NCBI GenBank assembly: GCA_965178125.1
Contig: OZ237756.1
Coordinates: forward strand, 62,001 to 126,000
Length of the DNA: 64,000 bases
Direction: 5' to 3'
Origin: Bilabrum cf. latius
Taxonomy: Eukaryota
The first letter of the stretch is position 1. Every line of letters begins with the position of its first letter. A program made the translations under genes and the position numbers. The notes under the pieces are model-generated. The model saw nothing but the letters and a program-made list of their open reading frames with translations. It was not told the DNA's origin and did no database searches. Shown in pieces: positions 7,813-60,143 of the stretch.

Positions 7813-10800
7813 ATGACCACTCCGTCTGGCAAAGATAACTCGGTTAGTTTGCTTCGACGCCTGTTGGCGGCCTTCAAATTCGACAAGAACAAGGCCGATT
7901 AGGTGCGTGGAACCCGGCCGCCAAGACTCGCTCCAAGAGTGCCAGAATGGCAAGATCCGTTCGCGTTGATTGCTTGGTTGCAGCGTGTTTATTCACAACT
8001 AGTTCGGTGTGAGAGAAATAGGGCATTGTGGAGGGATTCTGATGGCGTATCTCGTTCGGCAGAATCGGCAGCTTCACTACCTTGCCTAATTCCCTTGATG
8101 TCTGCATTGCACCGGTCTTCCGCAGCGGAAACTCTTCGTGCTAGGCGTGATATTTAGATCCAACCGTAGTCATGCTCTGGGCAGGCTGTCATACTCGCGG
8201 GACGGCGCAGTCAATCCTCCGACGTGCGATGCTTCGGGATCATGTTGCCGCTTCTTACCCTCAGCTTGATTGCCAGCCCGTTTTTGTTGGGCGTGATGAA
8301 CTCATCAATAACCCCGTCACTCTTTCATTTCGGCGCGTACGACTCTTGGGGCCTTCACACCGTTGACCGGACAACCCTGGGCGATCCGCGTGCACAAATG
8401 GTCGACCTGGAACCGCGGGAATATGAGGGGTTTCGTGCCGCTTTCATTGTGTATCCTATGCTAGCCATCATGTGGATATGGTTAACCTTGATTTAGGTTC
8501 GTGTTCAGGTTGTGTCAGGCACAACTCGTGCTCTAGTGGCTGCCACGCGAACTCCAACCACAGCGACTGCCTAGCAGCTAGAGCGAGCTGCAATCGCAGG
8601 ACAGTCAAGTCCCGCGCGCGCTCTGTTGGAAACCCGTATTGCTACACGAGACGACAAAGTCAGCCCAGGCGTTCCTTACGAGCGGCCATTGATCATGCCA
8701 GTGTTCGGCACCGTTCCCGTGCTCCTCTACCGCCCGCGGAGAAGGGCCGCGGGTCAAACCGGGGACAGTAATGCCAGTGGCAGCATCGGATCATCGATTC
8801 TGGTCCCCACAGACCAGCGTCGGGCGGATCCTGGCGGGCGCAGCGTGATGGAGATGGGCAGCACATCCAGCGAGATGCACTCGGGGGAGGTGCACGGAGG
8901 GCAGGCGGGGGCTGGACCAGCCGGGCTGGGCGGGGGCTCCAATGTAGCCGGGAGATAGTCACAGCATGGTATGCATCAAATTCACGTGCTCAGGGCCCAT
9001 GCAGTGCGGCAGGGTACAGGCCCTTCCGTGGACCATGCGAGCAAGCCGGCGTCAATCGACCGCCAGACCCACGCCACGGACACAGCCCAGTTCCCCTCTC
9101 GAGCCAGCATGGGGGAAGACACCTCCAGCTCGGACCAGCAGAAGGGACTGGCGACGGACGGCGAACCAGTGTTGGACCCACCCCCGGGGCTTGAGCCCGT
9201 GGTGGCGGTAGTGGGCGCGGTGGCACCTGCCAGCGGCCCGGCCTCTGCCCCTGCCCCTGCTTCGACTGTGCCGGTGGGGCAGATGGCCCGACCTGAGGCA
9301 AGCAAGGAAACCCGCATGGATCTAGCTCGGGAGCGCATGACTCTTCGTGACCTGAGTCCATTCGCCATGCGCTTCACCAGCAAAGGTGACCTGCTGCGGT
9401 CCTCCCAGCGAGCCACGGACTGGTGCCCGAGGGAGACCTGCGGGGACTGCGGCTTTGAAAACTTGCTCTTTCGACCTATGCAACTCTGCGGGGTCACACT
9501 GTAGGCAGCGGCATGGGTCACTAACGTCGTGTTTGTGGCAGGCTGGCTCTCGGCAGTGGTTGTCGATCTGACGGAGGGGTACCCTGGCGCAGGGCTGTGG
9601 CTGCTCGCTTACATGGCCCCGACTGCCGCAGTTCCAGCTTCAATCACCGACCTGGGGATGGTTGTGGGCTTGTACCTCGTGTTGAGTGCGCTCTATCTTA
9701 TGTGGGGTATTGCATTTGGCCTGATGCGCGGCATGGGGGACGAGCTGCTCACGGCTGACGGTGCCAACATCGTCAGCATTGGAGCGGCCCTGCTGATCGA
9801 AACCACGCCGTACTTTACAGTGGCCTACATTTTCATCGTGGCCCGGTTCTACACCGGGCTTGTAGTGCGGAACCGAGTTGAGCAGTGCATGCACGCCGTG
9901 GCACAAATCGAGGCGGACCATGAGACGGCCATGCGTGCAGCCCGCGTGCAGATGCCACCCTTTGCTCTTAGGCTGCTGCACGGGGATACCACTGGAGTTG
10001 AGCTGGAGGACACTACGGCAGTCCTCGTGCTAAGGATTCACGTGAGGATCAGGCACCGCGAACGGAAGTCCAGAGACAGGAGCGTAGATACGGACAGGGT
10101 CGGTGCTGCTGACGCTCCCCTGAGCGTCAAGTCATCGAGGGGCAGGCACCAGGGCGAGCAGCGCACGCGGGCTCGAGGCAGGGCGAGGGGTCGTAGGCAC
10201 AAGAAGAAGAAGGCGTCCAGGAGTGGGCGGCGGGGTTACGACTCTGCCGTATCTTCTGGCTTCTCCACGGATGGATCTGAAGCAGGCTCGCAGCAGTACT
10301 GGAGAAAACCGTAGACTGCAGCCCGTGATGATATCTCGGGTTTGGACGAATCAGGTATGCAGTCTATAGGCGCATTGATCACCAGTGCAGCAGGAATGAC
10401 AACAACGAGCAAGACCTCCAGACTGGGTCAGAGCAGTCGGGAGGGGGGAGGGGATGGCAGAGAGAAGCAGTCTGCAGCGAATGATGCAGCCGCTGAGGAC
10501 CAGTCGCGAGAGAGCAAACTGGCCCGGGTGGTGCTGCTGTCAGTGGCACTCATCGAGCGGGTGCTCAGCTCGGGGCAGTTCAATCACAGGGCCACCTGCG
10601 TGTCCGTCGTGGGCCAGGACGTGGTGGTGGCGGTGCACGGGGCGGGCTCCAAGGTGTTCGGACTAAACTATGACGACGACCAGGAAGAAACAGTCCCAGG
10701 GCCCCCGGCACCAGGCACGCAGGATCCGCATGGTGACGCACTATCCGGTAGGACGGGGGGTGGGGTGAGGTCCAGGGGCAGTTAGTACCAGGTAAGAGGG

Positions 10801-13800
10801 GAGGGTGGGGCACAGTCCGGCAAGAGTCGGCAGCACACTTACAGCGGCAACATTAGGACGGGAGACTCATCACATCAAGATCAGGAGCAGGGAGGCGCAT
10901 CCGGTGGGATACCCTCGGCGTCCTCGTGGCAGCCAGATGATCCGCTGGACACTGGAAGAGGCTCCTATGAGACGGTGGAGGTGGATGGTCCCACGCAGGA
11001 CGGTTCTGGCAGCGGCTCTGGCTCGACCTCCAGCAGCCCAAGCAGCCGCGAAAGACCCATCACGAAGGACGCGGCCGGCTGCTTCAACATCACCACGGCT
11101 CTTGAAATCGCACTCAGGGCATCGTGGATCGTGCGAGACAGCGGCAGGCGAGCTGGGCTAGAGCCAGGAAGCAGCGTGCGAGTTGGAGCTGGGATTGCAT
11201 TCGGCAGCAAGACCGTGTGCGGGTTCATGTCAAGGGGATCTTCGGCCCATCGATGGAGCGTGTTTGGAGACGGGGCCACGGAGGCTCACCAACTAGCGGC
11301 ACAGGGGCCTGGGATCCACATCAGCTCACGCGCTTTGGAGCGGCTGCAGAGCCCTTCGTCATGGGGCATCGTGCACAGCGACACTCTCAGGAGGCTGCAG
11401 AGGGTGCAGGGCGGCTGCACGGCCCACCTTGTCATGCCGTGGATGCGCGGGGCAGGCGTGCACCGTCCTGACCCGAGGTACAACTTACAGAGGGAAGTGG
11501 AGCAGGCGGAGCGGCAGCTCGTGTCTGGGTGGAGGCAGAGGATGAGGGGAGAGGCGAAGCAGCTGCTTGAAATGTGCGAAAAGAGGCCGATGCCCGTGGA
11601 TGCGGTGGCGTTCGGGGCCACAGTGCCCGCGACCCACTACTACGAGGTGCCTCACGATCGGAGCGAGGAGGATGAAATGCGAGGCGCAGAGCACTCGGAG
11701 TCAGGTGCTGTCTTGTGGGGAGACAGGAGCATCCCGGGTGGCTTGGGACAAGTGAGACGGGCTGCTGGTGGCGAGGGGGGGCATCGGAGAGGTGGAAGAG
11801 CCAGGGTTGGCAGGGGTGGCCGACACGGAGGCAGGTCAAGATCGAGGGCAGGTGCCAGCATTGGTCACTCTCTATAGATGTCGCTTCAGGGCACTAGCGT
11901 GGTCCTAGACGTGCTGGATCGCATGCGTTCGCTTGCAACGGCGCGGACTGCTCCTGGCTCTGGTAGAGGCGACGGCAGCTCAGTCGGTGCCCGGGGCAGA
12001 GGGTCAGAACGCACTTGGAGCGGGAATAGTGGACGTAGTGCCGACGCATTTAGCCGCCGATCTCGACGGGGCGGGAGGAGGCGGCAGCAGAGGGGCGTGA
12101 CTGTGATGAGTGCTGACTCAGGGACCCTGTCCATGTCGCTCAGCAGCAGCGTGGACTCCAGGTGGGCAGCCACTAGGACCCTGCAGTTCGGAGAGGACTG
12201 GGTGCCCGTGGCCTCCCAGGTGCCTGAGGAGGTGGATGTGCCGCTGAGGGCGGCGGTGCGCAGCGCAGACGACACCGTGCGGCTGCAGCTAGGTCTGCCT
12301 CGGCTTCGTAGAGGGGCAGAGGAGGCCTTGGTGAGACTGATGCAGAGGCACGAGCCAGGCAAGGAGACGCAAGTCAGGTCCACTGGCAGGCGGGCCATTC
12401 CTCGGGAGCACAGTGACCCCACGAGTGCCACCACGGTAGGCTAGAGCTTCAGTCTAGCCCCCTCTCGCGGGCGTGGGAGAGGCATCTCTCCGCCTCACCC
12501 ACGTTCTCAGCACGTGGTGTCCGCCCGTGGTGGTCTGGTACAGGGTAGGGAAATTTCAAGTAGACAGATTCAGACTCAGAATAGGCAGGGGCTGCTAGTG
12601 CCAACCCGCGAGGGAATACGAGAAGAGGGCAGGCCCAAGGATAGGGGCAGGGGCAGGGGCAGGGGCAGGGGCAGGGGCAGAGATGGAGGAGGTAAGGGTA
12701 GAGCAGCAAGGACAGACTCGGAGAAACCCGCTCCCAAGTCATAGTCCAGAAGCAGCAGCCGATTGCGCGGCAGACAATCACCTGCGCCGACTCCAGAGCA
12801 TGCGCGTGCGAGCCGCACCCATGGGGGTCCCGCCCGCATGGCGCGCGACCAGGTGCACGCAGCCGGCCTGAGCACCGATGAGAGGCAGAAGGTCGTGAAG
12901 TCGCAAGCCTTCGACTACGTGCGGTCCCCGCCCACTCGGTTCGTGCAGCACCCCATCATCCTGCTGGTCGCGGGGCTGTTTGCCGGACTGGATGCTCTGC
13001 TTGTGGTGCTTCGACTGGCTTACACGGTGCCGCAGTTGAGTCCAGGGAGCATTGACACTTTCGAAGATGCTTTGGCAGCTGGCACTAGGGCGGTGCAATG
13101 GCAGCTTTTCTGCAGCATTAGTCTCATAGCAGCCACAGGCCTTATGCTCGGATGGCGGTACTTTCACCTGCACACGGGTACTGGTCCTATCCCCGAAGAA
13201 GACAGGAAAAAAGGGATCGTTAGGTACGTATGCATGACCAGCGACACTGAGAATGGGGCGGTGTATGGGGCCATCAATCTGGTGGCCCTCGTAGTCATGC
13301 GAGTCGCAATCCACATGACTCGTTCGGAACTACTGAGAGACTCCACCGTTGGCTGTGTCGCTTTTGCTGGCATGTACACGCTACCAGTGGCGCAGATGTG
13401 CACGCTCATGTTTGTGGTGGTGCTGCTCCGGAGCGCGGATCTACATGGAGTGTTTCGGCCGACGATCTGGATGCGCATCGGGGTGCTGCTCCTCGCGCTC
13501 ATGATTGCAGTCCCCGACGTGGTGATCATGGCAAGTGACTGGGGGCCGTACGTTCTCACATCCGGAACCATCCCAGTGGATGCAGCCGACGTGGGACACG
13601 CCGTCTTTGCGTGCAGACCCAATTTGAACCCTCGACACGACCCCAAACCAATCTATCGAGTGCTCATCGGACTGCGCGGGCTTGCCGCCGCCATTGCCAC
13701 CCTGATCCTGTAGGACGAGCGCGGGATCGTTGTGGTTAGCATGGGGGACCGCATCATGAGGGAACTGGAGGTCCTGTCTGCACGTATGCTCATGAGGAAG

Positions 13801-16800
13801 CAGGTCGTGTTTAGGGTCGTGAGGCATCTGATCCCGTCAGCTCTTCTTGGCGTGATTCAGCAGCAGATCGATGGCGAGGAAGAGGAGGCTAGTGGACAAG
13901 ACCAGGACAAAGGTCATGGGCGTCAAGATGGCGAGACTTCCAATCAAGATCGTGCCGATGCACAGAGCGGAGTGGACCACGCAACCGAGCAAATAGCAGT
14001 GAGGCAGTCCATCGAGAACTAGTCGACTCCTGGCGCAGCTTCGGCGGCAAGTGCTCACGCAGCTCCTGCAACAGAAAGGGTGCAAAATCACGACCTAAGT
14101 CAGACCTCGCCCGCGTTTGGAAGCTTGCATCACATGGGCCGGTAGTCAGACGATCGTTTTGCCCAGCGCGCTGCCCATCTACCACAGCGGTCCCAGATCC
14201 CAGCGGTGTTCCGACACCGACTGATTCTTGCCAAGCCGACCAGCTGCACAGTGCTAGCCGTTCGATTCCGTGTGGCCCAGATGCTGGACTCGCTGGTCTC
14301 GGCCGTCAATCTCTTTCGCCTGAGCCGCATGCTAGCCGCTGTGGTGGAGGACTGCTGCGGGATCAAGTACCCAGGGGGAAACCAGATCATCTGCGAGAAG
14401 CCAGATGGTAGCATCACTGTGGTGCAGCCCAAGGCCCGAAAGAAGAGCGCAAGCATCTTCTTAGGACTCAGGGTGCACGTACACAGCTATGGAATGACTG
14501 TGGTGTTCCGGGACAATTCCAGGCAGGCGTTCCTAAAGGCAAACAGCTCCCTTCGGCAGGTAGGGGGCTACTGCCCAGTGACCCACGCTTTGCTGTCTGC
14601 CTCTGCCGCCATTGCTCGAGTGGAGGCAATTCAGCGCCGGCTGGGGGCGATTCTCTCCATGTCTGCGGCTATCCATGTAGGCGAAGTGGTGCTGGGGACC
14701 ATCGGGGCGCAGGGACAAGCTTGGGATGCATATGGCAGAGGAATCAACAACGCGACGGCGCTGGCGGCAGGTGCCGCGGCAGTCATGTCTCCGGATAGAT
14801 CCTGCATTGCGTTGTCGCAGACCGCAGTGCAGACGGCCGTGCCTTCTAGCCAGTCGCTTTTATAGGGGTTCACAGTGTGTGTGGGGCCGCAAGGCGGAGA
14901 AGGTCCACTTGCATTGACTGCAGGCCGTGCAGGTCGAGACGCAGTGGTCAGAAGCTCCGCCAGCACTGAGACTGGGACGGAGAGTGGCAGCCGAGCTAGT
15001 GCCACGAATGTCAGAGCGGGTGGGTTCACGCCTTCAGCTGAGACTGTGGCATCGGCGCCAGGCCAGCGGCACGCAACTGCCTCTGCTCGTATCCAGCCAC
15101 AGCCAAAATCTTAGCCCCGTTCACTAGGCGTGCCTTAGACTCGGTTGGCTGGGATGCCCCATGGGGATACGAAGCGCATCCCAGTCCGAGGCGTGGGCCA
15201 GGGCACGGGCGCAGGTGACAGCGCACCACCTGGGTCCCCTCGTGGCGCTATCAACGTGGTAGGCGCGGGCGGCCTTCTGGTCCCTCGGCAGGCAGCGGCA
15301 CAACGACCCGGTGCTCTGCAGTCTGTTACTGCACGTGGTGGTGGTGGTGCGGGAGGTGAGCGCGACGCATCTGCAAATAGTGTGGATGTGGGCGGCAGCA
15401 CGGGCGAGGGCCACGATGCGCCCTCCTTGCGAGATGCAAGCGCCACCGGAAGCAGCAGCACTGCAGCGACGAGTTCAAGTCGGTCATCGCAGCAGAAGGA
15501 GGCCGCCGTTCCCGGTCAAGAGGAAGCCTAGGGAGCTGAATCGTTTGTGAAACCAACTGGCGATCAGACGTCCCAAGATTCTGGAGGCGTCTAGCTGTCT
15601 GCATCGCCGAAACGAAAGCGGGGCAGGCAAGTCAGATTGGAGGGGGCAGCAGGCGCCAAGACGAACGGCGGCACTTTAGCGGATAGTCCGCTGGGCGAGT
15701 CATCGGGTGACGAAGACGAAGACTCGGTGGAAATGAACGGCTCGTCCTCCTTCGAAGACATGGAGGAGGAGGATGAGGATGATGACGATGACGATGACGA
15801 TGAGGACGGGCTCGGCACGATGGAAGGCGATCTATCTCCCATGACCAGCTCCTCCAAACGCAGCGGAGGCAGCGGACAGGACTCTTTCCAGAGGTCTGGG
15901 ACCAGCGTCTCAGGGATGGCGGAGGAAGAGGATGGGTCAGCTGAGGGGCTGCTGGTCCAAGGCACAAAACTGAGGGTGCGTGCTGTGGTGGCCAAGTGGT
16001 CACCCAAGCTGCACAATCGTTGGTTGAGCCTTAGCTCGGGGAAGCCGTAGGTTAAAGATGGACAGGCCAGCAGATCCATACGGTCAAGCGGGCTGAAAAG
16101 TTCAGCCGAATGGACGGATCCGGCTCCTGGCGAATTGCCACCCGGGAGTGGCGCCTCAATATCCAGCTAGCTGCGGATCCACGCTCCAAACGGGTCGTCC
16201 CGCGGAGGGGGCATGCAAGCTCCTAGGAGCCCGTTCATGCGCAGCCGCGAGATGAGCGGGCCCAGGGGGCACGCCTAGTTGGCTTCCGGGAGCTCGACTG
16301 AAGTGCAGGCAGGTGCGCCGTCCGTCGCAGTCCTGGAGCGGTGGCTTCGCACTGGCACTGCCCCGGGGGCTTTCATCCGCGGGCAGATGGTGGCGTTCGA
16401 TAGCCAAAGCTTGGGCGGGGACGGCTCGCGCAGAACTGATGTAGACGATGGCTGGCCTGAAGTAGATGCCCCAACGCACCGTGGGAGGCGTGCAAGCGTC
16501 TCTGGCACGAGGTCCTTCGGCTCTGTAGCAATGACCGCCATGTCCACTCGCGACCTCCAGCAGGCTGCCTCCATGCTGAGGGGATACAAGGCCCACTGGG
16601 CGGGGGTGTTCCTTGCCAGACAGAAGCGGATGAGGCTGCTGGGTGCGGGTGCTTTCGGGCGCGTGTTCATGGTGCGGGACTCTGTATCGGGCGCACCAGC
16701 CGCCCTAAAGCTCTTTTAGAAGAAGCAGGCTCTGCGAGACGAGGTGCGGGGCGAGATCGTGGCCCTGGCCGCGCTCCCACCGCACCCTGGGATCATGCGA

Positions 16801-19800
16801 ATGGCGCTGTGCCTTGCCATGACCGACAAGGTTGCTCTGATCACCGAGTACATCAAGGGCACTACCCTGCAGGCCATCGTGTCGGGGGCTCATAGACTGA
16901 GGGCAGACGTGCTGCGCGTGGTGGTGGCCCAGCTGGTGTGTGCCGTCGGGGTGTGTCACGAGGCCGGTATCTTGCACCGGGACATCAAACCAGCGAACAT
17001 CCTGGTGGATTCAAGGACTGGGCACGTGAAGATTATTGACTTTGGACTGTCCGTGCCGATGCGGCGGCCCGGCAGAAGCCACGGCGGCTCCAAAGAAAGC
17101 ATGTCGGGTGGGTAGAACCTTTTCGGTCGTTCCGGTGCCGATGGCATGGGCCTCCCCGTGCCCCAGCTCCCCTCCAATGGCGAACATAGGGACGCGCGAT
17201 TTCGTAGGGCAGGTCTCGCATCTGCCGCCTCCTTGCTGAAAGAGACGCACGTGTCTTCCACCTCGACAAGGGCCATGCAGGCCCAGCTGGCAGCAGTCTC
17301 ACCGTGCATGACCATAGGATAGGCGCACCAAAATATGGCCAACCTCTAGCTCGTGTCTCAGGGGGCTCACGGGCAGATATCTGCCTCCTCATTGGGTTCC
17401 AGCCCTGGGAGCAGCACCCGGCAACAGCCCTCTCCGGGAAAGCAAGACCTAGGACAGACGACTGCCTTGACACGACAGCAATCCAGCACGGGCTCTGAAC
17501 CGGCGTACACTTCAAGCAGTGCGGTGGCGTATTCCAAGCATCACGACGCTATTGAGTCGAGTGAGCCGATGGAGCGCAAGGCACCTCTGAGACCGATGAC
17601 GCGGGAGGCTCCGAATGGAACCCGGATGCTGGCTGCTTTGACCATGCTCGTGTTTGACCAGTCCATCGCTGGGGACAAGCATGTCGAATACTTGCGACGG
17701 GCGGGGCGCAGGCACAGGCGCGCTAGGTCGAAATCGTCCAGCACTAGTGTGGGTGCCAGCAGCAGCTCGGGCTTGCGGTCGAACCATCAAAGTGGCAGCA
17801 GCATCGCTGGTTCAGGCTCCATTCGGGAGTTGTCCGGCGATTCCATTAACCGAAGCAACTCTGGAAACAGCAAAGCTAGCTCTGAGGGTCCACTCATGCG
17901 ACTATGGGAGGTGGAGGACTCGCTGCCTAGCGATGATCAGTACGGGTACAATGGATCGAGTGAGGGTGGCCGCAGGTCCGCCAGCTCGCCGCAGGGCGAG
18001 TTACAAAAAGAACGCAACGCAGCGTTCGCCGGAAGTCGGCTGGCATCGCGACCGCGCTCTCGATTCGTGCTAGCAACGGGAAGTAAGGCCACTGCCAGCG
18101 GGGGTTACACCAGCCCGGAAGATCGCAGCTCATCTGACAAAGCACCACCCACTGCAGCGGCAACTGCGACGGCAGGGAGCACCGTCGGCTCCAGCCGAAT
18201 TGGTCCCTCAAGCAAGTCATCAAGGGGCCGGCATCAAGCTCACTCCATGCTCGCGCCTCCAGTCCTCGACACGTATGCAGAGGCTATGGAGGCGGATCCG
18301 CGGCTGGTCCTGCCACTAGCAGATGAAGACACTGCAAGGCAACTGCTGCATGAGCCAGTGGACGCATTCGAGGCCATCGACGACGACGGCCGAATCGTGC
18401 CTTCGCTCGTGTGGAGCCCTTCCTAGATGCGAGGGGCCATTCTCAGCGACGGCCCTATTTTCGACTGCATCGTTCTGACTGATGTAGGTGATGTGGATGT
18501 TGCCATCGGGCTCCTTGTGCTTATCTCTGCCTTCATGCCGCCCACCCTGGAGAGCAGCCTGCAGGCGATGCAGGCCGCCACTCCCGTGGCAGAGGCAGCC
18601 GAAGGGCATGTACCAAGTCTTCGAGCGTATCAAAATCAGCCGCAAGGCGCCCAAGCTCCCAGCTTAGACTCCAATGCACTAGGCGGCACGCGACGCCCCG
18701 GGAGCTCCAAGGAGCCTAGCCATGTCTCCTCGGGCTCACCCGGGATCAGTCGTGGTGTCGACGGGTGGCCCAAAGGCAGTTCGCTGGCGGTGCCACTTTC
18801 TGTGCTGTTGCCGCGTATTGTGATCATGTTCGAGGCTGGCCTGCCACGTAGGCAGCAGGACCGCATCAGGTACTACGTGAATCGGCTGTGCCCTGGGGTA
18901 TCCTGTGTCCCGATGGAGACCACCGGGTTTGAGCTCTATGGGAAAATGGTGCTGCCTGCCTTTGCGCGAGCAGCGCGGTGGCAGGAGCTGGCCTGCCAGC
19001 ATGCGATGGGCGCTGACTACCTGCGGCCACAATTCAGCATGCCTGGGGCTGAGCGGGCCGGCTGGGAGCACATGCGCAAGCTGGCCTCCTCGGCGCGATT
19101 AGGTGCGATGGCAAACAGACCTCTACGCGAAGCGAATAGGCTGCTGGATGGCAGCCATCAAAACGATAAGAAAGCCGCCGAAGCTTATCCGGCTCAAGTC
19201 CAGTCGACTCGCTAGAATGCACCCGACCCATCGGCTGGCATGGCTATTGCGCTTCCGAGGGGGCGCAGGTCTGAGGCATCTGCCAGCTTCTCGGGGGAAA
19301 CAGCCGTGGCTCACGGCAGTGTGCTTGCCTCACCACGAGCTCCTCTAGCGGTGCATGGTCATCGCAGCGCTGCGGATCAGGCTGCAGACAGGGCTGTGAG
19401 AGGCGGTCAGCTGGCTCTACCCCCGGGGCATGCCGGTGGATGGTCTCAGCAACACGTGAGGGGAGTAGCTGCAGCACCAGGCCCCGTCGGTGGCAGCAGG
19501 GCTCCAGGCAGCAACCCAATGGCCCCGAGGGACCCTTAGAACGAGCAAAGAAAGGCCACGTCTTCGTCGTCGCAAAATACAACAGGTAGTGCTTCAGATG
19601 CACCCACTGGTGGGCCTGGCCTCTTTTCATCATCAGGCGGATCCGCCCTGTACGTGCTGCCCAACGCCAAGGACCAAGTAGACCGCCCCAGCAGCAGCAA
19701 GCTACCCGCACACTTCCATGAGGCGTCTGGTTCGTATGGGGCAAGCAAGAACAGCGACAGCGGCGGGACCCACTTGTCCAGCAGCCAGAAGGCAGGCGCT

Positions 19801-22545
19801 GCCCAGGGACAGCCCCGCCTCACTGGTTACCGTACCATCACGCAGCCTAGCTCCTCGTTGTCATCATCAGGCGCTGAAAGACGCGAGCCATTCTCTCTCG
19901 AGAGCCTAGGTGACGATGCAGCTGTCGGCTAGGCGGTGCAGTAGACCGCCACACCCATCCTCGAGCTTAAGCGCGAGTTCGCAAAGGGATTTGCGGGATC
20001 TCCCGCCTTCATCGCACCGGAGGTGATTCGGGGAGAGCCTGCAAAGGGTTTCGCAAGCGACTGGTACTCGCTGGGCGTGTGCATCTTTCGGCTGGCCAGC
20101 GGGAGGCTGCCATACGAGGCAAACTCGACGGACCAAGTACTGGTCAAGGGCAGAGACGGACGGGTATCCTGGGAGAGGCTTCCACGCACTGGTGATCCTT
20201 TGTTGCTCGACTTGATCGTGGGTCTGCTGGAGCAGGATGCTGGGAGGAGGTACGGCGCGCGGGGCGGAGCCAGGCACCTGATGCGGCACCCGTACTTCAG
20301 CGGAATGGACTTCGATTCTATTTACGCGGTGTCCAGCCCTCTGATTGATAGGGAGCTGTGCGTGGAGTCTGGGGGGCGAGATTGCTTTGCAGACCGGGGA
20401 TCAGCAGTGGATTTCATCAGCTATGCCAGAGGTCTTGTGGCGGGGATGCCTCTGGGGCCCAAACACGCCACGGTGGGCGGGTGGCGAGGCATGCCCGTGG
20501 AAGAGGACGCCTGGTGGGATGCGCCTGAACGGCCTGGAGATAGCAACAAGGAGCAAAAAACCTCGGGGCAGGAATCGAGTGGAGGGGGCGCAGGCGTAAA
20601 CTCCACGCACAGTCAGGGATTTGCAGATGCCAGTGAGGGCACGCCCGTGCCTCTGCCCTCCATCACAGGGCATGAGGGTACTGATCGCACCAGTCAGGCA
20701 ACAGCAGGCAAGCCTCAGGGTGATAACCTCGCTGCACCATTTGGCGGTATGCAGCTGCAGCCTGCCAAACTAGTCCAAGCAAGTGCGGGGCCGATGGGCG
20801 CACAAGGAGGCCGGGGCACAGATGGATCCCCAGTGCAGGGGGATGTCTGGGCGAGGGGCGTGGGTGGCTCTACGGAGGCCTGGGAGGAGAGCGAGGACTA
20901 GAGCACGTCCGTGCCAGCGGGCGGGGAGGATGCAGAGCCAGATGCACTAGAGGACAGGACTGGCGAGGTACATGGGGCATCGGGCACAGCAGAGCAGTCC
21001 AAGCACGAGGCTTCAAGTAGCGGCAGTACCCCAGGCAATTAGCAGGGGAGTTCACTCGAGACACTCACAGCGCAAGCTGATAAAGCCACCGTGGGGGCAG
21101 GCACAGGCACTTCACCCACTGCTGCGGGTACAGGCGCTTCTATAGCAGTACGATCGGCAAGCTTCAAGGGTGCTACCAGTGGGACTCTGACCGTCGCCGG
21201 CGAGGGGGCGCCGGGCGGACGGGGTACGGGAGCCGGGGGTGCACGTGCAGCATTGGCGGCGGCTCGCCCGCGTCATGATGTGCAGGTGCAAGGGGCAGGG
21301 TCGAAGCGTGGTGCAAGCGGGGGCTCCGTGCGCTGGATGGGTCAGCTGGGTAGCAGACGAGGGGGGGGGAGTCGGCTGAGTCGAAGGGGTGGTCGATCCC
21401 TGGAGGAGATGGACGCGGGGCAAGTGGAGTCACTGCGGCGGCAGGCGATCCAGGAGTCGCGGCACGGGGGCTCTAAGGGCCGACTCGAGCCGGGCACCTC
21501 TTTGGTTGCGGTTGACATGAAGACGGGTCGCATTCAGCATGCCGGAGGGATGCCAAGGAGGCCGCGGGGGAAGATGGGTGGAGAGGGCAGGGGTGGGCGG
21601 AGGCGATCAAGGCCCGACAAGAGCAAGAGCGGCCATGCAGGCACGAGCTACTACAACAGCAGCAGGGGTGTGGCCGGCGGGATCCTTGGGCCGCAAAGAA
21701 GTGGGAACAACCAGCAGTCGCAGCAACGTGACGGTGGTGGTGGTGGTAGTGGTGGTGGATCCTACGGGTATGGCGCCGCGCTGCATAGCCAGGAGGTGCC
21801 CGCAGGACAGGAGCATCACCTGGAGGCGATGGTGGCGGCGTCTGCATCGGGCAAGGGTGCGATGGTGGCGAGTCTTTCGGGCTAGGAGTCGCCTGGGCCT
21901 GAGGCAGTCAGCTCCCGACAAGCTGGAGGAAGAGGTTCAGTGTCGGGCACATCATCCACATCATCGCGTCGCTGGAAGTCGGCCGGGGGCAAGGAGGGCG
22001 CCTCCATCGGCGGGAGCAGGGGCACGGGCTCAAAGAAGCGGGGCCGGAAGAAGGGCAGAGGTGGGGCAAAGAACAAGACCCAGCTCAAGCCCAAGAAGAA
22101 GAGCAGCACACGAAGGCAGCAGGGCCAGAGGCAGGGCCAGGGAGAGCTGTGGGAGAGCTCCTCTGACGAGCACGAGCCCGAAGGACAAGCCACAGAGCAG
22201 CATGTTGGGGGTATCCGCGGGAGCCGTGGGGTCCAGCGGCAGCGACAGGACGCCAGTGCTCGCATGGCCCGCATCCTGGGGGAGGAGCCCTCGGAGGGTG
22301 ACCAGCGCGTGTCTCGGGAGCTGGCGGTGGCACTCAGGGAAGGGAGGGTCAGGTCACTGGCGATGGCGTCATCGGTGCACGGGCATGCCAATGCGGCGGA
22401 GGAGGCCGTGGCCTCCTCCGCGCAGGGCAGTGCGATGCACCGGAGTCGGCTGGCGGGCCTGCACGCGGCCTCCGGGGGCTCTTCCTCCTCTGCTGCCTCG
22501 GACCGGTCTGGGAGGGAGGGCAGGGGAGGTGGGCGGAGGATGTGA
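7813..22545 (+). CDS. Giant (~4910 aa) membrane protein: TM clusters, two class III nucleotidyl cyclase-like domains and a Ser/Thr kinase with a huge activation-loop insert
   Basis: Single frame with 35 in-frame TAG and no TAA/TGA until TGA 22543; every gap between track ORFs was translated by hand. Cyclase-like motifs: RVGAGIAFG..VCGFM...RWSVFGDGATEAHQL..QGPGIHISS (~11180-11330) and AAIHVGEVVLGTIG....WDAYGRGINNA (~14665-14760). Kinase motifs: LGAGAFGRV, ALK, HRDIKPANIL, DFG, then GSPAFIAPE and DWYSLG. Confidence 0.85.
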
Positions 22546-22924
22546 TGCGGGGTATTTGGAGCAAATTCGAGTTTCAAAACCGCCGTTGGTTCGCATCCGC
22601 ATAGACGGGGATGTCTAGCGACACCACGCTGTGCTCCGGCGTGAGAAGAGAGCTAGGCGTGCTTTCAACGCGTATCGTTTGTTGATCAAAGTGAAATAGT
22701 CGTTTGTGTCATACCACCAGACTGAATGCGGATTCTTCTGGCACTCACATGTCAGCCGACTGGTTTTGTTTCTTGGACAGATCGGATCCGGGTGATCCAG
22801 GATATTTGGTTCCGCTAGTGTGGATTCGGAGCCTCGATCCTCGTGCGCGGCGATGCGGCCAAATCACCGCCGCGTCATCCGCATTCAATCAGATCCCTCA
22901 CCGAAAAATACGTTTCCAGACGCT

Positions 22925-24068
22925 ATGGCAGCAGCTGCTGGATCGACACGACGAGCCTTTGTTGGTGGAAACTGGAAAGCCGTGAGTTCTCCTCTAGATT
23001 CATCATGATATCGCCACTTGATACGTGTCTCGAATTTGTCATTGTAGCGCACTTGAACCGAAGTTAACGCAAAGTAGCAACACGATTTACTTTCCTACTT
23101 CAAATTAGTACTTGTGTACGACTGAGCACGCATTGAATCATGTGCAAGCTCATCTTGCTTGCGAATGATTGATTAGACACTTGTGCACTGCAGTCAGCCA
23201 CCAAAGAGAAGATTGCCGCCGTCATTGAGGCTGTAAATAAGTGCGATATCCCTGAAACTACCGGTGAGCAATATTTTGGATCGGCGGGCCGTAGCACGGT
23301 CCTCTGGCGTTGTTCTGATCGGAACCAGCGCTTCGTACGACGAGCTCGGTCAAGCTAGTCTCAGCATTAAGCGATGCTTGGAGAGCGACACACGCATTGC
23401 TGCTATCTGTTCTTGACTGATACGCAGATGTCGTATTTGCCCCGTCTGGAATCCACATGGAGTCCACTCGCGCGGCCCTCCGCAAGGAGGCCTCTGTTGC
23501 GTGCCAGTCGATCCACTCGGCGGAGGGCCTGGGCGCCTACACTGGCGAGGTCACGGCTGCCATGCTCAAGGAGGCGGGCATTCAATGGACGCTGGTGGGC
23601 CACAGCGAGCGCCGCAACATCTTCGGTGAGACAGACGAGGCTGTCGCCGCCAAGGTCAAGGTGGCTATGAGCCAGGGCATCAAGGTGATCGCGTGTGTGG
23701 GCGAGACACTCGAGCAAAGGGAGGCCAACGACACCATGAAAGTCGTCAGCGCGCAGATCGAGGCGTTCATACCGTCCGTGGAGCGCTGGGCGGACGTGGT
23801 GATCGCCTACGAGCCCGTGTGGGCCATCGGCACTGGCAAGACAGCCACGGCGGACCAGGCCAACGATGTGCACAAGGCCATCCGCGCCCTCCTGGCCAGC
23901 AAGGTATCTGATGCAGTGGCGAGCAGCACCCGCATCGTGTACGGGGGCTCTGTGAAGGGTTCCAATTGCAAGGAGCTGATCGCTGAGCCCGACGTGGATG
24001 GCTTCCTGGTTGGCGGGGCATCGCTCAAGCCAGAGTTCGCCGACATCATCGCTAGCACTGCGAATTGA
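22925..24068 (+). CDS. TPI: Triosephosphate isomerase (exons 22925-22981, 23194-23263, 23428-24068; ~255 aa)
   Basis: FVGGNWK, GAYTGE, LVGHSERR, IAYEPVWAIGTG, YGGSV, DGFLVGGASLK. GT-AG splicing restores the frame; ends TGA. Confidence 0.96.
22982..23193 (+). other. Spliceosomal intron 1 of TPI
   Basis: GTGAGT donor and CTGCAG acceptor; phase 0; AT-richer than the exons. Confidence 0.8.
23264..23427 (+). other. Spliceosomal intron 2 of TPI
   Basis: GTGAGC donor and ACGCAG acceptor; splicing yields the conserved DVVFAP. Confidence 0.88.
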
Positions 24069-24226
24069 ACTGAGAATGCAATGCCTAGAGAATGCAAGAA
24101 TGTACATCTACCATCTGGATGCATGATCATTTGTGAGCTTCACCTCTACCCATTGGGTCGGATCCAGGGGGATCTGGATTCCGGATGAGTCTATCAGTAG
24201 GCATACCTAGCCTATCTGATTCCAGA

Positions 24227-28583: not shown

Positions 28584-30827
28584 TCAGTCATCCTCCTCTT
28601 CATCATCGAACAGACCCGAATCATCGATGGTCGAGCCCTTCTTGGAATTCCCTTGCGCTTGCCCTGGGCCCCTCTGCGACCCCCGACCATGTCCAGCCCC
28701 TGACCCTGACCCTAAACCTGTCCCTGTCCCATCTGCGGGCCCATTGCTTTCGCCTGCCGTCGCACTACTGTCTCCTAGCATTGCCCCAATATCATCTTCC
28801 CCATCCTCATCCTCATCCTCATCCTAGTCATCGTCATCGTCCGCCATGGTTGCGGTACCCCCGCTTCCACCACGTGCACCACCGTGCGCTGCATCCTTGC
28901 CCCGGATCCCCATGGCTACTTGAGCCGCCAGCGCATCCGCTTCGTCATCCCCCGTCAGCGCAGCGCCCGTGGGGCCCGTCACTGCCTGCCGAGCGGCCCT
29001 CGCGCGCGACATGGCTGCGTCCGCCTCCGCACTGGCCCTGGCCGCAGCCTCCTGCTGCAGCTCCAGCTGCCTCTGGGCAGGGTCCTCGTACAGCAGCTGC
29101 AGGGCCATGCCCTCCGCCTACTGCACCTCCTGAGGAGCGGGCGCCCGCCGTGCCACGAACACGGGTTCCACCACCTGATCCTCTGCCCCCACGCCCATGG
29201 CCGCCTGCGCCGCAGTAGAGGACGCCACCTTCCCGCAGGTCGCCTTGGTCCTCACTGGTGCGAACCGCACCACGCCGCGGTCGTCGTCCCACCGCAGCAC
29301 CAGTGTCCTCTGGTTGGCCTGGGAAGCCGCCCCGCCCAGCACCACGAAATCCATCTCCCTGGCAAATTCCCTGACGCCTCCTCTTGCCCGGTACCTCCTG
29401 CGCTTGGTCCCAGCCAGGGGAGCCACCTCCTCTTCCTCTCTCTCCCCATCGCTCAAACCAGCATCATCCTCCGAGGGGGCATCCCCTTCCGCCCGCCGGT
29501 CCACCTCCGCTTGTTCCCTGGCCGCGGTCCCCTCGTCGTCCTGCCTCGGTACGTACACCCAGGCCAGGTCCCCCAGCCCCATGTAGGCCTCCCCCGATCT
29601 GTCCGCCCTCTCCCTCGCTTCCTTGGGCGTGCGGATCAGCACGTTCTGCAGGCGGCGGCGCTTGGCGGCACGGCCCAAGGGCTCTAAGCCCTTGGCCGCT
29701 CGTGCCTCCTCGTCGTCCACGGGGGCATCGAAGTCCACGTGCACCAGGCCGTCCGACCATGCCTGCGCGTCGGGCACGAGGGCCCAGGCCCGCTTGGGCC
29801 TAAGGCGGCGCTTCTTGGGGTCCGGGTGTCGCATGGAGGCCAGGGCCTGGGCGCGGGCAGAGGACGAGGACGAGGACGAGGACGAGGAAGAGGACGAGGG
29901 GGCGGATGATGCTGAAGACGAGGACGAGGAAGAGGAAGAGGACGAAGCAGCAGCGGCCCGGGGGAGCTGCATCTGCCCCGCCGTGTCCGCCACCGCGTCG
30001 AATTCGAGAGCCACCCTCTGCCCAGGGGTGAGCCCTTCCACGCTGCGACCTCCCGCCGCTGCCGCCGCGCTCTCCGCCTCGATCTGCCTCCTGGTGGCCT
30101 CGGCCCGCCTGCGGATGGCGTCTGCCTGGCCCTTGCCCCCGCCAGAGGCATCTCCCGTGGTGGCCTGCACGTTCTCGGAGAGATCTGAGAAGAAGAGCTT
30201 CGAGTGCATCATCCAGTCCACCTGCGAGGCCAGCTCCGTGCCAGAGACCTTGTTGGCGCGCTCGGCCTCATCTGCGAACTCGTCCGATGTGATGGCCGCG
30301 TCCAGCTCGTGCAGCTCCGGCAGCTTGCCATCTGGTCGGGGCGGAACTGCGAGGGAAAACATGGTCACGTTGTGCAATTGCAGAGAGCTGGTTTGGCAAA
30401 GTGAGTGGTGAGTATGAGCAGCATAATGGGTTTGACGGTGCTCACGCTCGCGCAAGCTAGGATCGATAATCAGCGCGCTAAAGTTAATTCCCAAGTCTGG
30501 TTCTGGGCGGATATCCCATTGGTAGGACTGCTCCATCGTCGGTCCCTCCGCTTCACTGTATCCAAACAGGCGATCTCGAGGCATCGGGTAGTGCACGAGC
30601 CTCGCCTCCGTGGGGGGATCGGGCAACGGGATCTGGAACTCCACAGGGCAGATAAAGGTGGCAGAATTTTTCATCTGATGCAGCTTGCTCCACGCTTCCT
30701 AAATATTGTGGTTTCGAATCACTCGCTGCCGGTACTCTGATACCCTCATACTACGTTCCTACCTGCGGCGCTGCCGCTCGGCTTCCGTCTCCCCAGCAGT
30801 GCCACCAACCTACATTGCCTATGCCAT
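28584..30827 (-). CDS. PAF1: RNA polymerase II-associated factor Paf1-like (~714 aa after removal of one intron)
   Basis: FICPVEFQIPLPDPP, PEPDLGI, HPDPKK..LRP..AWALVPD, VDFDAP and an acidic tail. TAGs at 30819, 30810, 30759, 30699, 29118 and 28824; ends TGA 28584. The start could instead be 30749 or 30674. Confidence 0.8.
30347..30445 (-). other. Probable 99-nt, frame-preserving, stop-free intron in PAF1
   Basis: GTGAGC donor (same as TPI intron 2) and TTTTCCCTCGCAG acceptor. Removal gives DPSLRELPPRPDG. Confidence 0.7.
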
Positions 30828-31634
30828 CTTGCCTGATAGTCTGACGTACAGGCGAATACACCCACGTTCCAGCCGAACTCAGTGCGCGGCATCTCAGCAA
30901 CGGCGCCGCGCACGCCGTGGTTCCGTAACAGGCGTCCAGGCAACGGGCAAACACACCAATACGATACACACGCTATACGCTATTGACACACAATGGAAGC
31001 ATGTGCTTTCATGGTTCTTTCCGTTTGTGGCAGTGAGGGCCGATGGATCCCCGGAGCTGCCCAACTTGCCTGACAGTTAGTCAGGGAAAATCGAAAATGG
31101 TGCATGCAGCGTCTATGTTTTCGAACACCAAACTCCTCGGCATAATCTGGCATAATGCTCTCTCTGTGATCTGATGTGACCTTCGCTGCCCATGCCTTGT
31201 CGAGGCGTTGTTCTCATCTCCTGAGCACCTTGCGCTTTGTAGAGCCCAACTACCACGCAATAATGCACTATGGCATATTTCGGGGTCGATAAGCGACTCA
31301 GTGCTTTTTGTTGACGTTCTCCTGCCATCTTGATTCGGAGAAGGGGAAAACCCAGCGCCTGTTCTATTCATATGCCATGCAAGCCAGCATCTTACCTTTG
31401 GATTCTGCGTTGTGGCATTACACAGCCGTTGAAACGACCAACATGAGATGATCAAGCAGAGTGATGGACTAGGGTCCCGAATTTTCGAGCTGCTCCGGGT
31501 GGTTAAAAAATGAATTAGGCCCTAGCGATGTGGGCATCCCATCCGCCACTTTAAGGGATCCTCGACCACATATCTGCATCAAATAATGGTACAGCGCTTG
31601 TGATTGATTTGATTGCTACATTAGGCAGGGAAAC

Positions 31635-34600
31635 ATGGCAGCTACTAGCTATGATGATATGATTGTGGACGACGGCCCAGGATGGTTTGGTTCCTGCGAC
31701 AGCGCGAAAGGGTTCCACCCGCTCAAATATTCTGGAGCAGAGCCAGTTCAACCTGCAATTATAGCTGCAAGCGCCTATACTGACATGTTTGACGGCGCGC
31801 AGGCACCTAGCAATGGCGGCAGGATTAGTACCACCCAAAGACGGGCCAGCCCGAGTTCGCTAGCATGGGATTCTTACAAGGAGCTCAGCCAGATTCGACT
31901 TAAGTCTGTAGGAGATTACGATAAGCATAAGAGGAACTAGCTTTTGGAAACGTTTGCGAAAAAGTTCAAGGACGCAGCAGTTGAGGCAGCTTTCAGGATC
32001 CCATCTGCCCTGTCGCGAGCTGCTGCGGAATCGGCTGCGGCAGGCACCTCAGCAGAGATAAACTTGACACAAGGATCTGCGCCTGATGACGATGTTTGCC
32101 TGCTGCCTGGCGCGGGTGGTATTGCGGGCGGCTTAAAAGCGACCCACCGGAAAAACGGGCTGTTTCTCAAGACCCCGGATGCAGCGTCGCCAATTTACCC
32201 GAACGAGGTCATGGCGGCGAAAGCAACCAAGCTAGAAGTAAGCGCGGCAAAGTATATACATTCCATGCGCGATCCTAGCGTCAACGGGGTTCCAATGACG
32301 GTGGTGGACGTGCCGTACGGGGACGTGCGAGGGGGTGGCAGGCAGGTGCAGCGAGTGCTAGTGCAGGGCATCGTCCCCATCAGCGAGGGCACTCTTAGGG
32401 TGGGCTCACCAGACGGTGGGGCCACAGTTCATAGCGATAGAAGCCTGCTCGATGTGGTCGTAATGCCGTTGGCACGAAGGTTCGGGCTGCACGGGCTGGA
32501 CTTGCCCGCTGCTCCTTTCTGGACCGTTTAGGAGCACTCGCATGAAATCGTGTTCGGCGAGGTAGATGCAGGAAGTTCAGATACGGGAACATGTCGTGGG
32601 GATGGCGCCGTGGGTACTGCGAGTAGCTCACTGGTGTCTGCAGAACCCCCGGCTGCAGCCGAACCCCCTGCTATCACAGTACAGCTGCCATCGCCTGCAT
32701 CTGGTGCAGGAGCAGACTGTCCTGCACGGCTGGACCAGCTGGCACTGCGGGGGGAAGATGGGGCCAGGGATGGGTTGGGAGAAGCTCGCAGCTAGGCAGT
32801 CGAACCAAGTACGGCAGGCCGAATCCCCGCAACCGGCGGCTCCCTCTTCCCATGTGACGTCAGCGGACCTCTTGCTGTCGTAGGGGAAACCACGCTGTCG
32901 GTGGCACATGCCTGCACCAGGAGTGTGGCCGAATTCATCGCTGCGAAGTGCCTGAAGAATTTGCGCGGTGGCCATCTCGCAGACCACGTTCAGCTGAACG
33001 AAACCGACACTTTCTTCTGCCCTCTCGTCTTCCCCACCCGCCGAGTAATCCACAGTGTTCGAACGAAGCAGCCACGGGAAGTGTCACCACCGGTGCTTCC
33101 ATTCGACGTGGAGGTGCACCAGCTGCCCAGCGGTGACCGAGTTGTCCTGGACACGCACCGGCTGCTCCTCCCCGATGTTGCCTGGAGCGACTGGGTGCGA
33201 CGGGCGAGTGATGCTGCTCCATGGGTGTTCTGCACCTACCCCAAGTACGAGTGGGGGCCGGTAAAATAGAAAGCGACCAATATATATGGCCGCCATGTGC
33301 CGCGTAACGGGTCATCTGAACCGCCCCGGCACGCTCGTGAGATCAACCCACGCTGGAGCGGGCCTCTCGGAACGGATCTTCGGTTCCTACTCGAGGCTCC
33401 TCACGTGAACGGGGTCATACGACAACTTGGCGCAGGCACTAAGGTGCCACCCGGGCTACTCGGGGAGCTGGAGTATGCCGTTCAAGAGTGGTGGGACCGC
33501 TGGAAGATGCGGCCTCCGACCGACCCACCCCAAGAAGACGTCTCCACATCTGCAACAGCATCGAGGACGGCTTCGCGTAGCCAGGGGGCACCCAGCACGA
33601 GTGGCGTCGTGGCGCACATCCCAAAACACGCAGAGTATTGCCCCTTTGAGCTGGCAGATCTAGACCTCTGCGTGAGAGCAATGCATGTCTGCCTCGGCAC
33701 TGGTTGCGTCGTGCTCCGAGGCGAGCTGCCTATGGGGGGTGCTGCTGCTGCCGGAAGCACAGATGGCTGGACCGGGTGTTCGGAAGCTGTCAAGCGGATG
33801 CTACCGCATGGGTTACCAGTATTTGTCGTAGCGTGTCCCCGTTGGTATTTTGGGGCGAGTTGCCACCTGACTTGCATGCTTCGTCCCGATGCTGGCACCC
33901 AGTCGAATCTCACTGCAGCACCCGACAGCGTGATGCGAGGTAGATGTAGCAAGGAAACTCGGTTTAGGGAAAAATCCGCGCTGCAGGCTGTCCAAGCATC
34001 GTTGCTAGGAGACGTGGTACGCGAGAGAAGGTCACGTTTCTATAGGAACACTGAGGAGACAGTATCACGGCAACAGGTCGTTCTCGAATGTCTCGCGAAG
34101 AGCCACTCTTTCCGCGACCAGGACTCAGCGAATGCCTTTGATCTAAGAAATCGAGCAAAGCGTGCGCTGCATTCGGCGGGGCTCAATCTCCGCTACCTTG
34201 GAATCATCGCGTAGTCAGTCCAAGGATGCGGGCTGAGTCCGCTCTGCAAACCGCCCTCTGTAGCTACACCACGGCGGTCGCACCGAAGCGAGTCTGATCG
34301 TATTGGAGTAGTACTGGGCGGCCTGCTTCCGTCTCCAGGATCTGCAGCTGGAGCGGCATTCCACGACTTTATTTTATCAGCTGCAGCAGCACATTAGTAG
34401 CAAGGGTGGCAGGTGAGTGCGGCTGTGCTCCGCTGCTGCTTGCTGGCCAGGGGCTTTGCCTGTCGAGGGATCGCGTTGGAGCCACATCCGGAGCATCTAG
34501 AGCTATCACAGCGCATTGTTATCGATTGGAAGGTAGACCACGAGTATAGGGTGACAATGGCACACGCCTGGCGTGAGACACCGCTGCCAAGTCTGGTGGC

Positions 34601-59700: not shown

Positions 59701-60028
59701 GGTCAGGGAATGGTATACATGAATACGATCATAGTATACCACTGGCTGTACCAAGCCAATCAAATTTAGCTTCAAATGTAGTAGAGACTGCGGACGGTAA
59801 GGGTATGTCACGTCGGTTGAAACCGGGGCAGTCATCATTGTGGGGCTCTCGGTCGGCTCTGAAGGCTGTCTTGCAGTCCCAGCGGTTCGCGCTCCAGGAT
59901 CACGACGAGCCGATCATGTGGAGCTTGCGGGACAGCCCTCTGACTGCGTGGGCAGAGGCATGCGGTGTGCATGGGAGCGGCCCTGAGAGCATGAGTGAGG
60001 CTGGAGGCAGTGCAATGTGGGGTGCATG
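56704..60028 (+). repeat. Tandem segmental duplication, copy 1 (period ~3.97 kb)
   Basis: Near-identical to 60671-64000, starting at CATCGGCATTTGATGCA. Confidence 0.95.
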
Positions 60029-60143
60029 TGCTGCTTTGAGAGGGCGGCAGATTGAAGGTGCTGGCAAGCAGCCTATGGTGGATCGGGTTGCGTCACACCC
60101 TTCTCTGCCAGCTTACGTGATCCCTGAACGTTGGCGACAGTGA
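56943..60143 (+). CDS. Signal-peptide-bearing class I SAM-dependent methyltransferase (Methyltransf_24-like), copy 1 (~1066 aa)
   Basis: Signal MQLSTCCVSGWLLMLILLLAGGTVEA. Motifs VVLEVGSFHGMS, VLSVDLW, VDLLFIDGDHS, GGRVLLHD. Six in-frame TAGs; ends TGA. Confidence 0.8.

Follow-up and report, generated by a model that had tools for sequence, protein, structure and literature searches.

A conserved gene family joining a twelve-helix pseudo-cyclase body to a split protein kinase with an embedded receiver fold

Introduction

The 64,000-nucleotide stretch of Bilabrum cf. latius DNA analysed here (assembly GCA_965178125.1, contig OZ237756.1, positions 62,001 to 126,000; the window) contains at 7813-22545 on the forward strand a reading frame that stays open only if TAG is a sense codon, which raises the question of whether this is one gene and whether the protein is a working cyclase or something else. 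A sequence-only reading had described a hidden, apparently intronless open reading frame (ORF) of about 4910 amino acids (aa), with a transmembrane (TM) cluster, a class III cyclase-like domain (C1), a second TM cluster, a second such domain (C2) and a protein kinase, forming a self-contained membrane signalling module.

The layout is six TM helices, stalk, C1, six TM helices, stalk, C2, kinase subdomains I-VII, a receiver fold and kinase subdomains VIII-XI, and it is conserved block by block in a family of 11 genes. This family of 12-TM pseudo-cyclases, each joined to a kinase that is divided in two and encloses a receiver fold, is real and apparently undescribed. The reading preferred here, with a probability of roughly 0.6, is that of a pseudo-cyclase receptor-type Ser/Thr kinase, which would signal by phosphorylation and not by cAMP or cGMP.

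The fusion is shared by a family of genes

The genome searched (G000) comprises 48.6 Mb in 111 contigs, with the window at G000:C22:62001-126000, and residue numbers refer to the unspliced frame of the window gene (locus C22). Profiles of C1, of C2 and of the kinase, searched separately against this genome, converge on a single set of loci, the modules following one order throughout. There are 11 full members including the window gene. Ten are each encoded in one frame, of 3415-5288 codons; the frame of locus C5 is interrupted within the kinase by a GT..AG intron. The candidates were 11 other loci and locus C10, and nine paralogs align with all modules, giving alignments of 10 sequences with the window gene. 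Locus C4b, which was outside the building of the profiles, matches all five modules. The joining of TM-C1-TM-C2 to a C-terminal kinase, proposed from the window gene, is therefore found again in 11 genes of this genome, as it is in relatives that use the standard code.

Between the window gene and its paralog C16a, identity is 70% over the TM1/C1 columns, 49% over TM2/C2, and 70% and 71% over the two kinase halves. Across the paralogs overall identity is about 22-25%, and the linkers scarcely align, in contrast to the conserved domain blocks. A search of the genome with Pfam PF00211 gives 26 matches, none of them on C22, and misses the whole family. There is no match to the kinase profile in the frames of the genome's ordinary cyclases, which were covered in part.

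Locus C4 (G000:C4:473489-483028, reverse strand) is probably a twelfth, more degenerate member; it lies on a long branch, and its split kinase is accompanied by the membrane sets and a weak C1 motif. Locus C10 (E 0.025) was rejected, no module being found there. Genes for ordinary two-domain cyclases, such as those at G000:C26:154003-172284 (L042, L043), are likewise of great length; one frame, in which a cyclase domain is close to the end, has at least 6094 codons.

A profile search of 1.84 billion representative sequences gave 58 matches, mostly fragments 40-100% identical to single paralogs. Recoding of UAG alone would hide the family within the lineage, where its database relatives appear as fragments. 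Among the matches, two PF00211 stretches and a split kinase occur in P0037 (2831 aa) and P0047 (2570 aa), both of which use the standard code. The same layout is seen in P0060 (3224 aa, EukProt), which is labelled as a complete ORF of transcript GECG01011050.1; its prefix is probably that of the transcriptome of the bicosoecid Halocafeteria seosinensis. Looking for the same architecture in related protists had been proposed as a check, and these three homologs show it. Homologs were also sought by word index: residues 1700-2350 had no match among the 1140 candidates scored, and the sole match to residues 200-620 of P0047, among 7995, was P0047 itself.

By eye, a PAS-like motif lies between C2 and the kinase at about aa 1640-1800 of P0060, and also in P0037, without a Pfam match. 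If real, it would bring the standard-code homologs nearer to the domain set of the kinase Rim15.

Membrane sets and stalks

Hydropathy places hydrophobic clusters where they had been noted, at about 8230-8500, 9500-9870 and 12950-13710. A loop of 330 residues separates helices 2 and 3 of the first set, and six first-set hydropathy peaks are seen in the paralog loci C8, C16b, C27, C1 and C15 and in P0060. For 12-TM cyclases a stalk and a transducer element have been described (PMC13466520), and here a long helix comes after each TM set, with Pro 715 of the first stalk kept in at least nine of ten paralogs and Pro 2008 of the second invariant. Three features of class IIIa are present, these being two TM sets (the sixth helix of the first by alignment), a stalk with a proline before each domain, and two class III folds.

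Two cyclase folds that have lost the catalytic residues

Profile support for cyclase folds, on which the two-cyclase proposal depended, was found for both domains. The C1 profile matches the genome's ordinary cyclases at HHalign P 92.6 (E 4.5e-7), and the C2 profile gives P 63.9 (E 6.6e-5 across 160 columns). The structural model of C1 aligns with C2 of rat AC2 at Z 13.7 with a root mean square deviation (rmsd) of 4.7 over 160 residues. C2 matches PF00211 at E 0.001, which is below the cut-off, while the standard-code homologs pass the cut-off with two stretches. Pfam gives no match for C1, TM2 or the kinase insert of the window protein; sequence searches of the PDB with the profiles of C1 and of the insert were uninformative, the best match of TM2-C2 being AC2 at E 1.7, and whole-protein PDB searches at strict thresholds gave no match. 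The C1 and C2 profiles scarcely match each other (P 3.9).

One half of a class III cyclase carries a pair of metal-binding Asp residues. In C1 these sites are Arg (10033) and Gln (10615), with Thr (11278) and Gln (11290) at the Asn and Arg sites. In C2 the metal sites are Arg (14263) and Tyr (14488) and the Arg site is Ala (14758), the Asn being kept in this paralog only. The catalytic role of the Asn and Arg is given in the legend to Fig. 4 of PMC5447177. Of the two metal-site Asp residues, the first is found in 0/10 of the aligned paralogs in C1 and 0/10 in C2, and the second in 0/10 in each domain, with Glu in 2/10 of C2. The catalytic Arg is found in none of the 10 in either domain, and the Asn in none in C1 and one in C2. 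As controls, seven cyclase domains of the same genome were compared, where the Asp pair is present in two (L003, L007) and Asn with Arg in five.

On alignment, both cyclase halves look catalytically dead, a loss overlooked when two class III cyclase-like domains were first proposed; the domains stand, by profile for both and by fold for C1, and what falls is a catalytic residue set in either. The working cyclase implied by the proposed signalling module is accordingly not supported; the fusion, the TM-C1-TM-C2 order, the kinase and the concealment by a non-standard code remain.

That an active, highly diverged cyclase is fused to an effector kinase is very improbable. In its favour, the fold and the layout agree with membrane cyclases, and one place past the second metal site of C1 there is an acidic residue in 7/10 paralogs (Asp in six, Glu in one). 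No full catalytic set is seen, however, with the halves in normal or swapped arrangement, in the 10 aligned paralogs or in two homologs, and the kinase has no Pfam cyclic-nucleotide-binding domain.

In the standard-code homologs P0060 and P0047, C1 keeps an adenine-type Lys and an acidic residue and the Asn and Arg are absent, which suggests that the pseudo-cyclase may descend from an adenylyl cyclase with its halves swapped. In P0053, Asn and Arg are in the first half and the Asp pair in the second. The purine-site residues of P0060 and P0047 would also fit an intracellular nucleotide sensor, in which the pseudo-cyclase pair, on binding ATP, GTP or a cyclic nucleotide that it does not turn over, signals to the kinase. 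The acidic purine-site residue of C2 is present in 10/10 (nine Asp, one Glu), Arg occupies the first metal site in 8/10, and second in the fold search is 6yii, by its entry title a cyclase-like ATP-binding protein. Against such a sensor, which appears improbable, the C1 purine-site residues have been lost in this genome's family, being Ser, Thr, Cys, Asn or Gln.

A split kinase with active-type motifs

The kinase, first placed at about 16630-20330, is real and runs from about 16610 to 20310, with Pfam Pkinase at E 5e-44 over two stretches. All of the motifs of an active kinase are present, with GxGxFG at 16642, the beta3 Lys at 16708, the alphaC Glu at 16753, HRDIKPxN with its Asp at 16981, and DFG at 17038, followed in the second half by the APE motif. 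They are intact in 10 aligned paralog N-lobes except for small variants of DFG. Between subdomains VII and VIII, after the DFG, the kinase is interrupted by 983 aa, and in 10/10 measured members there is an insert of 624-1293 aa at this point. Both the split and the receiver fold within it had been overlooked.

The best PDB matches of the C-lobe, among the 60 listed, are GRK, Akt, PKC and PKA, and those of the N-lobe are a mixture of CIPK, Snf1, PKA, RSK and CDPK. A tree of kinase N-lobes resolves only close paralogs and indicates no origin. Neither a cyclic-nucleotide-binding domain nor a PAS domain is matched by Pfam in the window protein.

A receiver fold within the kinase insert

The fold modelled inside the kinase insert is a predicted (beta/alpha)5 CheY-like receiver. 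The model, made without the first strand, has a mean predicted local distance difference test score (pLDDT) of 73, with 85-96 across most of the core. Its best match is at Z 9.1 (rmsd 3.2, 116 aligned), and receiver or response-regulator entries make up most of the best 50. Since the N-terminal part of the model is unmatched and there is a conserved block upstream, aa 3273-3300 are taken as the probable first strand and helix.

The hallmark of receivers is a set of five conserved residues, DD, D, T/S and K (PMC8510515). The beta1 Asp and the beta3 Asp are kept in 10/10; the Thr/Ser and Lys positions are not conserved, so that the domain would be an atypical receiver.

One frame, one intron and the reading of TAG

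Read with TAG as Gln, the frame 7813-22545 comprises 4910 codons, the length that had been predicted; 35 of them are TAG, none is TAA or TGA, and it terminates in TGA. Each of the remaining five frames contains 76-104 TAA and TGA codons. Translation by the standard code would break it into 36 segments, 25 of which are of at least 50 aa, in agreement with the "about 25 pieces" foreseen. The start codon is putatively the first ATG of the frame, at 7813.

The frame is not intronless, as it had appeared to be. A contig of sequencing run X5 splices out 8009-8125, and the paralog C16a has an intron at the equivalent site, there carrying a stop codon. The joint 8008>8126 is seen in the contig of run X5 only, the DNA-like runs X1 and X2 being without it. 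The 117-nucleotide (nt) intron is in frame, and the spliced product is 4871 aa. The X5 pieces listed (8126-8998, 8974-10747, 10819-12632, 12724-14899, 14929-21311 and 21565-22505) show no further joint; the piece 14929-21311 spans both kinase halves and 12724-14899 spans TM2 and C2.

None of the RNA-like pieces listed bridges the 29 nt between 14899 and 14929, at the junction of C2 and the kinase, and a single mRNA for the window gene is therefore proposed from the unbroken frame, the paralogs and P0060. This gap, and a frequency of Gln opposite TAG that is lower than opposite CAA and CAG, would be expected if the long frame were misleading, with TAG a leaky stop or with cyclase and kinase as separate genes in one frame. 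Such an explanation can be given hardly any weight, as it is opposed by the in-frame TAG in every long ORF counted in the window, a tRNA with a CUA anticodon, the fused order in 11 loci, the single ORFs of the standard-code homologs, and the lack of other letters at TAG.

All 12 long ORFs counted in the window contain in-frame TAG, 10 of them ending in TGA, one in TAA and one running off the window, and five metagenome loci (L138-L142) are likewise read through TAG. At 74 locally conserved paralog positions opposite TAG there are 27 TAG, 19 Gln and 28 other residues, reciprocal pairs being counted twice. Gln is thus opposite TAG in 19/47 (40%), against a background of 3.3% and 312/490 (64%) opposite CAA or CAG. 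It is opposite TAG in 10/31 cases in metagenome relatives and in 11/28 in database relatives, Tyr being found once in each. No alternative letters, such as editing at TAG would give, are seen at TAG positions in the aligned run contigs.

The CUA-anticodon tRNA is at G000:C23:907607-907679 (L109:1500-1574, reverse strand), with 69.8 bits, from a search in which 63 of 780 candidates were scored; a pattern search gave four matches, none a real tRNA. Its nearest sampled tRNA is Tyr(GTA) at 0.68, against 0.59 for both Gln tRNAs, and its acceptor stem is Tyr-like. That TAG is read as sense is near certain, and that it is read as Gln is very probable. Recoding of UAG alone, most likely to Gln and with TAA and TGA as stops, most likely holds for the whole window, for G000 and for metagenome loci L138-L142. 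The genome probably comes from a bicosoecid-like stramenopile lineage. UAG-only Gln codes have been listed for ciliates and Iotanema (PMC11687900), and no description of UAG recoding in bicosoecids or stramenopiles was found in a literature search that left out most subscription journals.

At about 51330-53190 (forward strand) there are 39 copies of a 14-aa coiled-coil repeat within a 2762-aa ORF. The Gln positions of this repeat use CAG only and have no TAG, and it is therefore uninformative on the code. Two tandem, near-identical genes with a Methyltransf_24 domain (56538-60143 and 60699-64000, forward strand) have TAG in common at 7/7 aligned conserved positions. In the 38.4 kb mitochondrial contig G000:C111 (L158-L161), the genes in the first 10 kb are read through with TGA as Trp.

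A proposed receptor kinase

The intact kinase motifs and the absence of the cyclase set, together with C1 and C2 being about as conserved as the kinase, argue for a pseudo-cyclase receptor kinase. In such a protein the membrane helices would sense a cue, which might be a ligand, a lipid or the state of the membrane, and the stalks would move a C1:C2 pseudo-dimer as they do in a working cyclase. The change in this presumed pair would then be passed to the attached kinase, if that is active, instead of to the synthesis of cAMP or cGMP. The atypical receiver in the activation segment would probably gate the kinase by contact rather than by an ordinary phosphorelay, or may provide a second input. 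The paralogs, whose membrane parts have diverged, would then amount to a small set of receptors. Mammalian cyclase membrane domains have been reported as receptors (PMC11606603).

Several observations weigh against this interpretation, in addition to the unbridged junction and the acidic residue of C1 given above. By hydropathy the window protein has 5+6 helices, not 6+6. The mean pLDDT of the C1 model is 56, a low value attributed to the inserts, and for C2, recognised from its sequence, the profile probability is 63.9. The Z of 9.1 for the receiver is little above the 7-8 usual for chance best matches, and Foldseek at E 0.001 gives no match for the C1 model or for the receiver model. Finally, run X5 is labelled "probably DNA" by the tool, despite spliced joints here and in the adjacent gene.

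The cyclase body might instead serve just to anchor the kinase, or act as its scaffold, at a membrane site such as the flagellum or the feeding apparatus, with regulation through the receiver-like insert or by phosphorylation of the linkers. Direct coupling is not obvious, as C1 is at least 1700 residues and C2 about 590 residues from the kinase with low-complexity linkers between, and inserts in the activation segment are reported to regulate Rim15-type kinases by the binding of partners (PMC1479807). Yet the stalk prolines and the C1/C2 surface motifs are invariant in spite of the low overall identity, which is more than a plain anchor would need, and a scaffold of this kind is seen as unlikely.

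If kinase output follows the membrane part in the proposed receptor kinase, the anchor is a receptor. What the paired six-helix anchors do in membrane adenylyl cyclases is an old question. A family in which anchors, stalks and C1/C2 folds are conserved, catalysis is lost and a kinase has been added would be a direct test of it, and a natural experiment in cyclase membrane anchors as receptors independent of cAMP. It would be a new receptor class if coupling were shown. A broader proposal, which falls a little short of an even chance, is of an undescribed eukaryotic receptor class in which a non-catalytic 12-helix cyclase body acts as a ligand or lipid receptor in cis to a receiver-bearing Ser/Thr kinase, a class that would predate and outlast the UAG-to-Gln recoding in a probable bicosoecid lineage and have expanded there into about twelve paralogs that standard annotation would miss.

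Comparison with known systems

Like the 12-TM class IIIa cyclases (mammalian AC1-9, the cyclase part of P4-ATPase-GC from alveolates and stramenopiles, and the two-domain membrane guanylyl cyclases from Halocafeteria), the window protein has two six-helix sets, proline stalks and two class III folds. Unlike them, it lacks the catalytic Asp pair and Arg, and has large inserts in C1, a C-terminal kinase and a receiver; it has no flippase part. About ten two-domain membrane cyclases are reported from Halocafeteria, with no kinase fusion found in the available portion of that paper (PMC5447177).

Receptor guanylyl cyclases have a single TM helix, with a kinase-homology domain first and an active cyclase last. 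As in the window protein, a kinase fold is combined with a class III cyclase fold in a single membrane chain; the window protein is their mirror image, with 11-12 helices and with two dead cyclases placed ahead of an intact kinase. They have been termed metazoan-specific, and in the Phytophthora kinome, as far as the same source was available, transmembrane kinases are found only among the TKLs (PMC3019232).

Rim15 has an insert between subdomains VII and VIII and an atypical receiver (PMC1479807, PMC8510515), and an insert at this place is common to the Rim15, Greatwall and NDR AGC kinases and the window kinase. Rim15, however, is soluble, with an N-terminal PAS, an insert of 188 aa and the receiver after the kinase, whereas the window protein has its receiver within the insert, a membrane pseudo-cyclase N-terminus and no Pfam PAS. 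Dictyostelium adenylate cyclase R (ACR), with seven helices, a histidine kinase, one active cyclase and a receiver (PMC3009899), is likewise a multi-pass protein of cyclase, kinase-type and receiver modules, one of them defunct and reused, but here there is a Ser/Thr kinase and two inactive cyclases. Within the literature searched, again without most subscription journals, no description was found of a 12-TM pseudo-cyclase with a split kinase and a receiver.

Features of the gene and its neighbours

Table 1. Positions in the window of the parts of the pseudo-cyclase kinase gene
Feature	Position	Strand	Basis or remark
Exon 1	7813..8008	+	ATG 7813, 65 codons + 1 nt; X5 contig starts at 7790, splices at 8008
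Intron	8009..8125	+	117 nt, GT..AG, in frame, no TAA/TGA in reading frame
Exon 2	8126..22545	+	Ends TGA; at least 32 in-frame TAG codons
TM helices 1-2, first six-helix set	8230..8499	+	aa 140-229; hydropathy; conserved in paralogs
TM helices 3-6	9484..9867	+	Three over hydropathy threshold, fourth placed by paralog alignment
Stalk and cyclase-transducer-like element	9868..10008	+	Model helix 2-24, MPP motif, Pro at 9955 (Pro 715)
Pseudo-cyclase C1	10009..11367	+	Three blocks separated by low-complexity inserts
Second six-helix TM set	12940..13716	+	Six hydropathy peaks; alignment
Second stalk and transducer-like element	13717..13860	+	Invariant Pro at 13834 (Pro 2008)
Pseudo-cyclase C2	14215..14847	+	Profile and alignment
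Kinase subdomains I-VII	16609..17052	+	aa 2933-3080; Pfam Pkinase E 1e-32; motifs kept in paralogs
Receiver-like first strand and helix	17629..17712	+	aa 3273-3300, Asp at 17656; VFD block in 10/10 aligned; by alignment
Rest of receiver-like domain, one insert	18355..18978	+	Asp at phospho-acceptor position (18481) invariant
Kinase subdomains VIII-XI, AGC-like by best PDB matches	19978..20307	+	About aa 4056-4165; Pfam E 3e-13; GSPAFIAPE at 19996
Low-complexity C-terminal tail	20308..22542	+	Two short motifs common to close paralogs

Downstream, at about 22920-24070 (forward strand), there is by eye a triosephosphate-isomerase-like gene with two GT..AG introns, joints 22981>23194 and 23262>23427 being seen in runs X5 and X6. 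In the ORF at 31608-35999 (forward strand), which has a CLU domain, the terminal TAA is followed directly by an in-frame ATG and an ORF of 311 aa (36000-36935) with a weak TPR match; the two ORFs either form a single gene, through an intron or readthrough, or are separate genes. In the Paf1-like ORF at 28584-30878 (reverse strand), the stretch at about aa 145-175 resembles, by eye, another in-frame intron.

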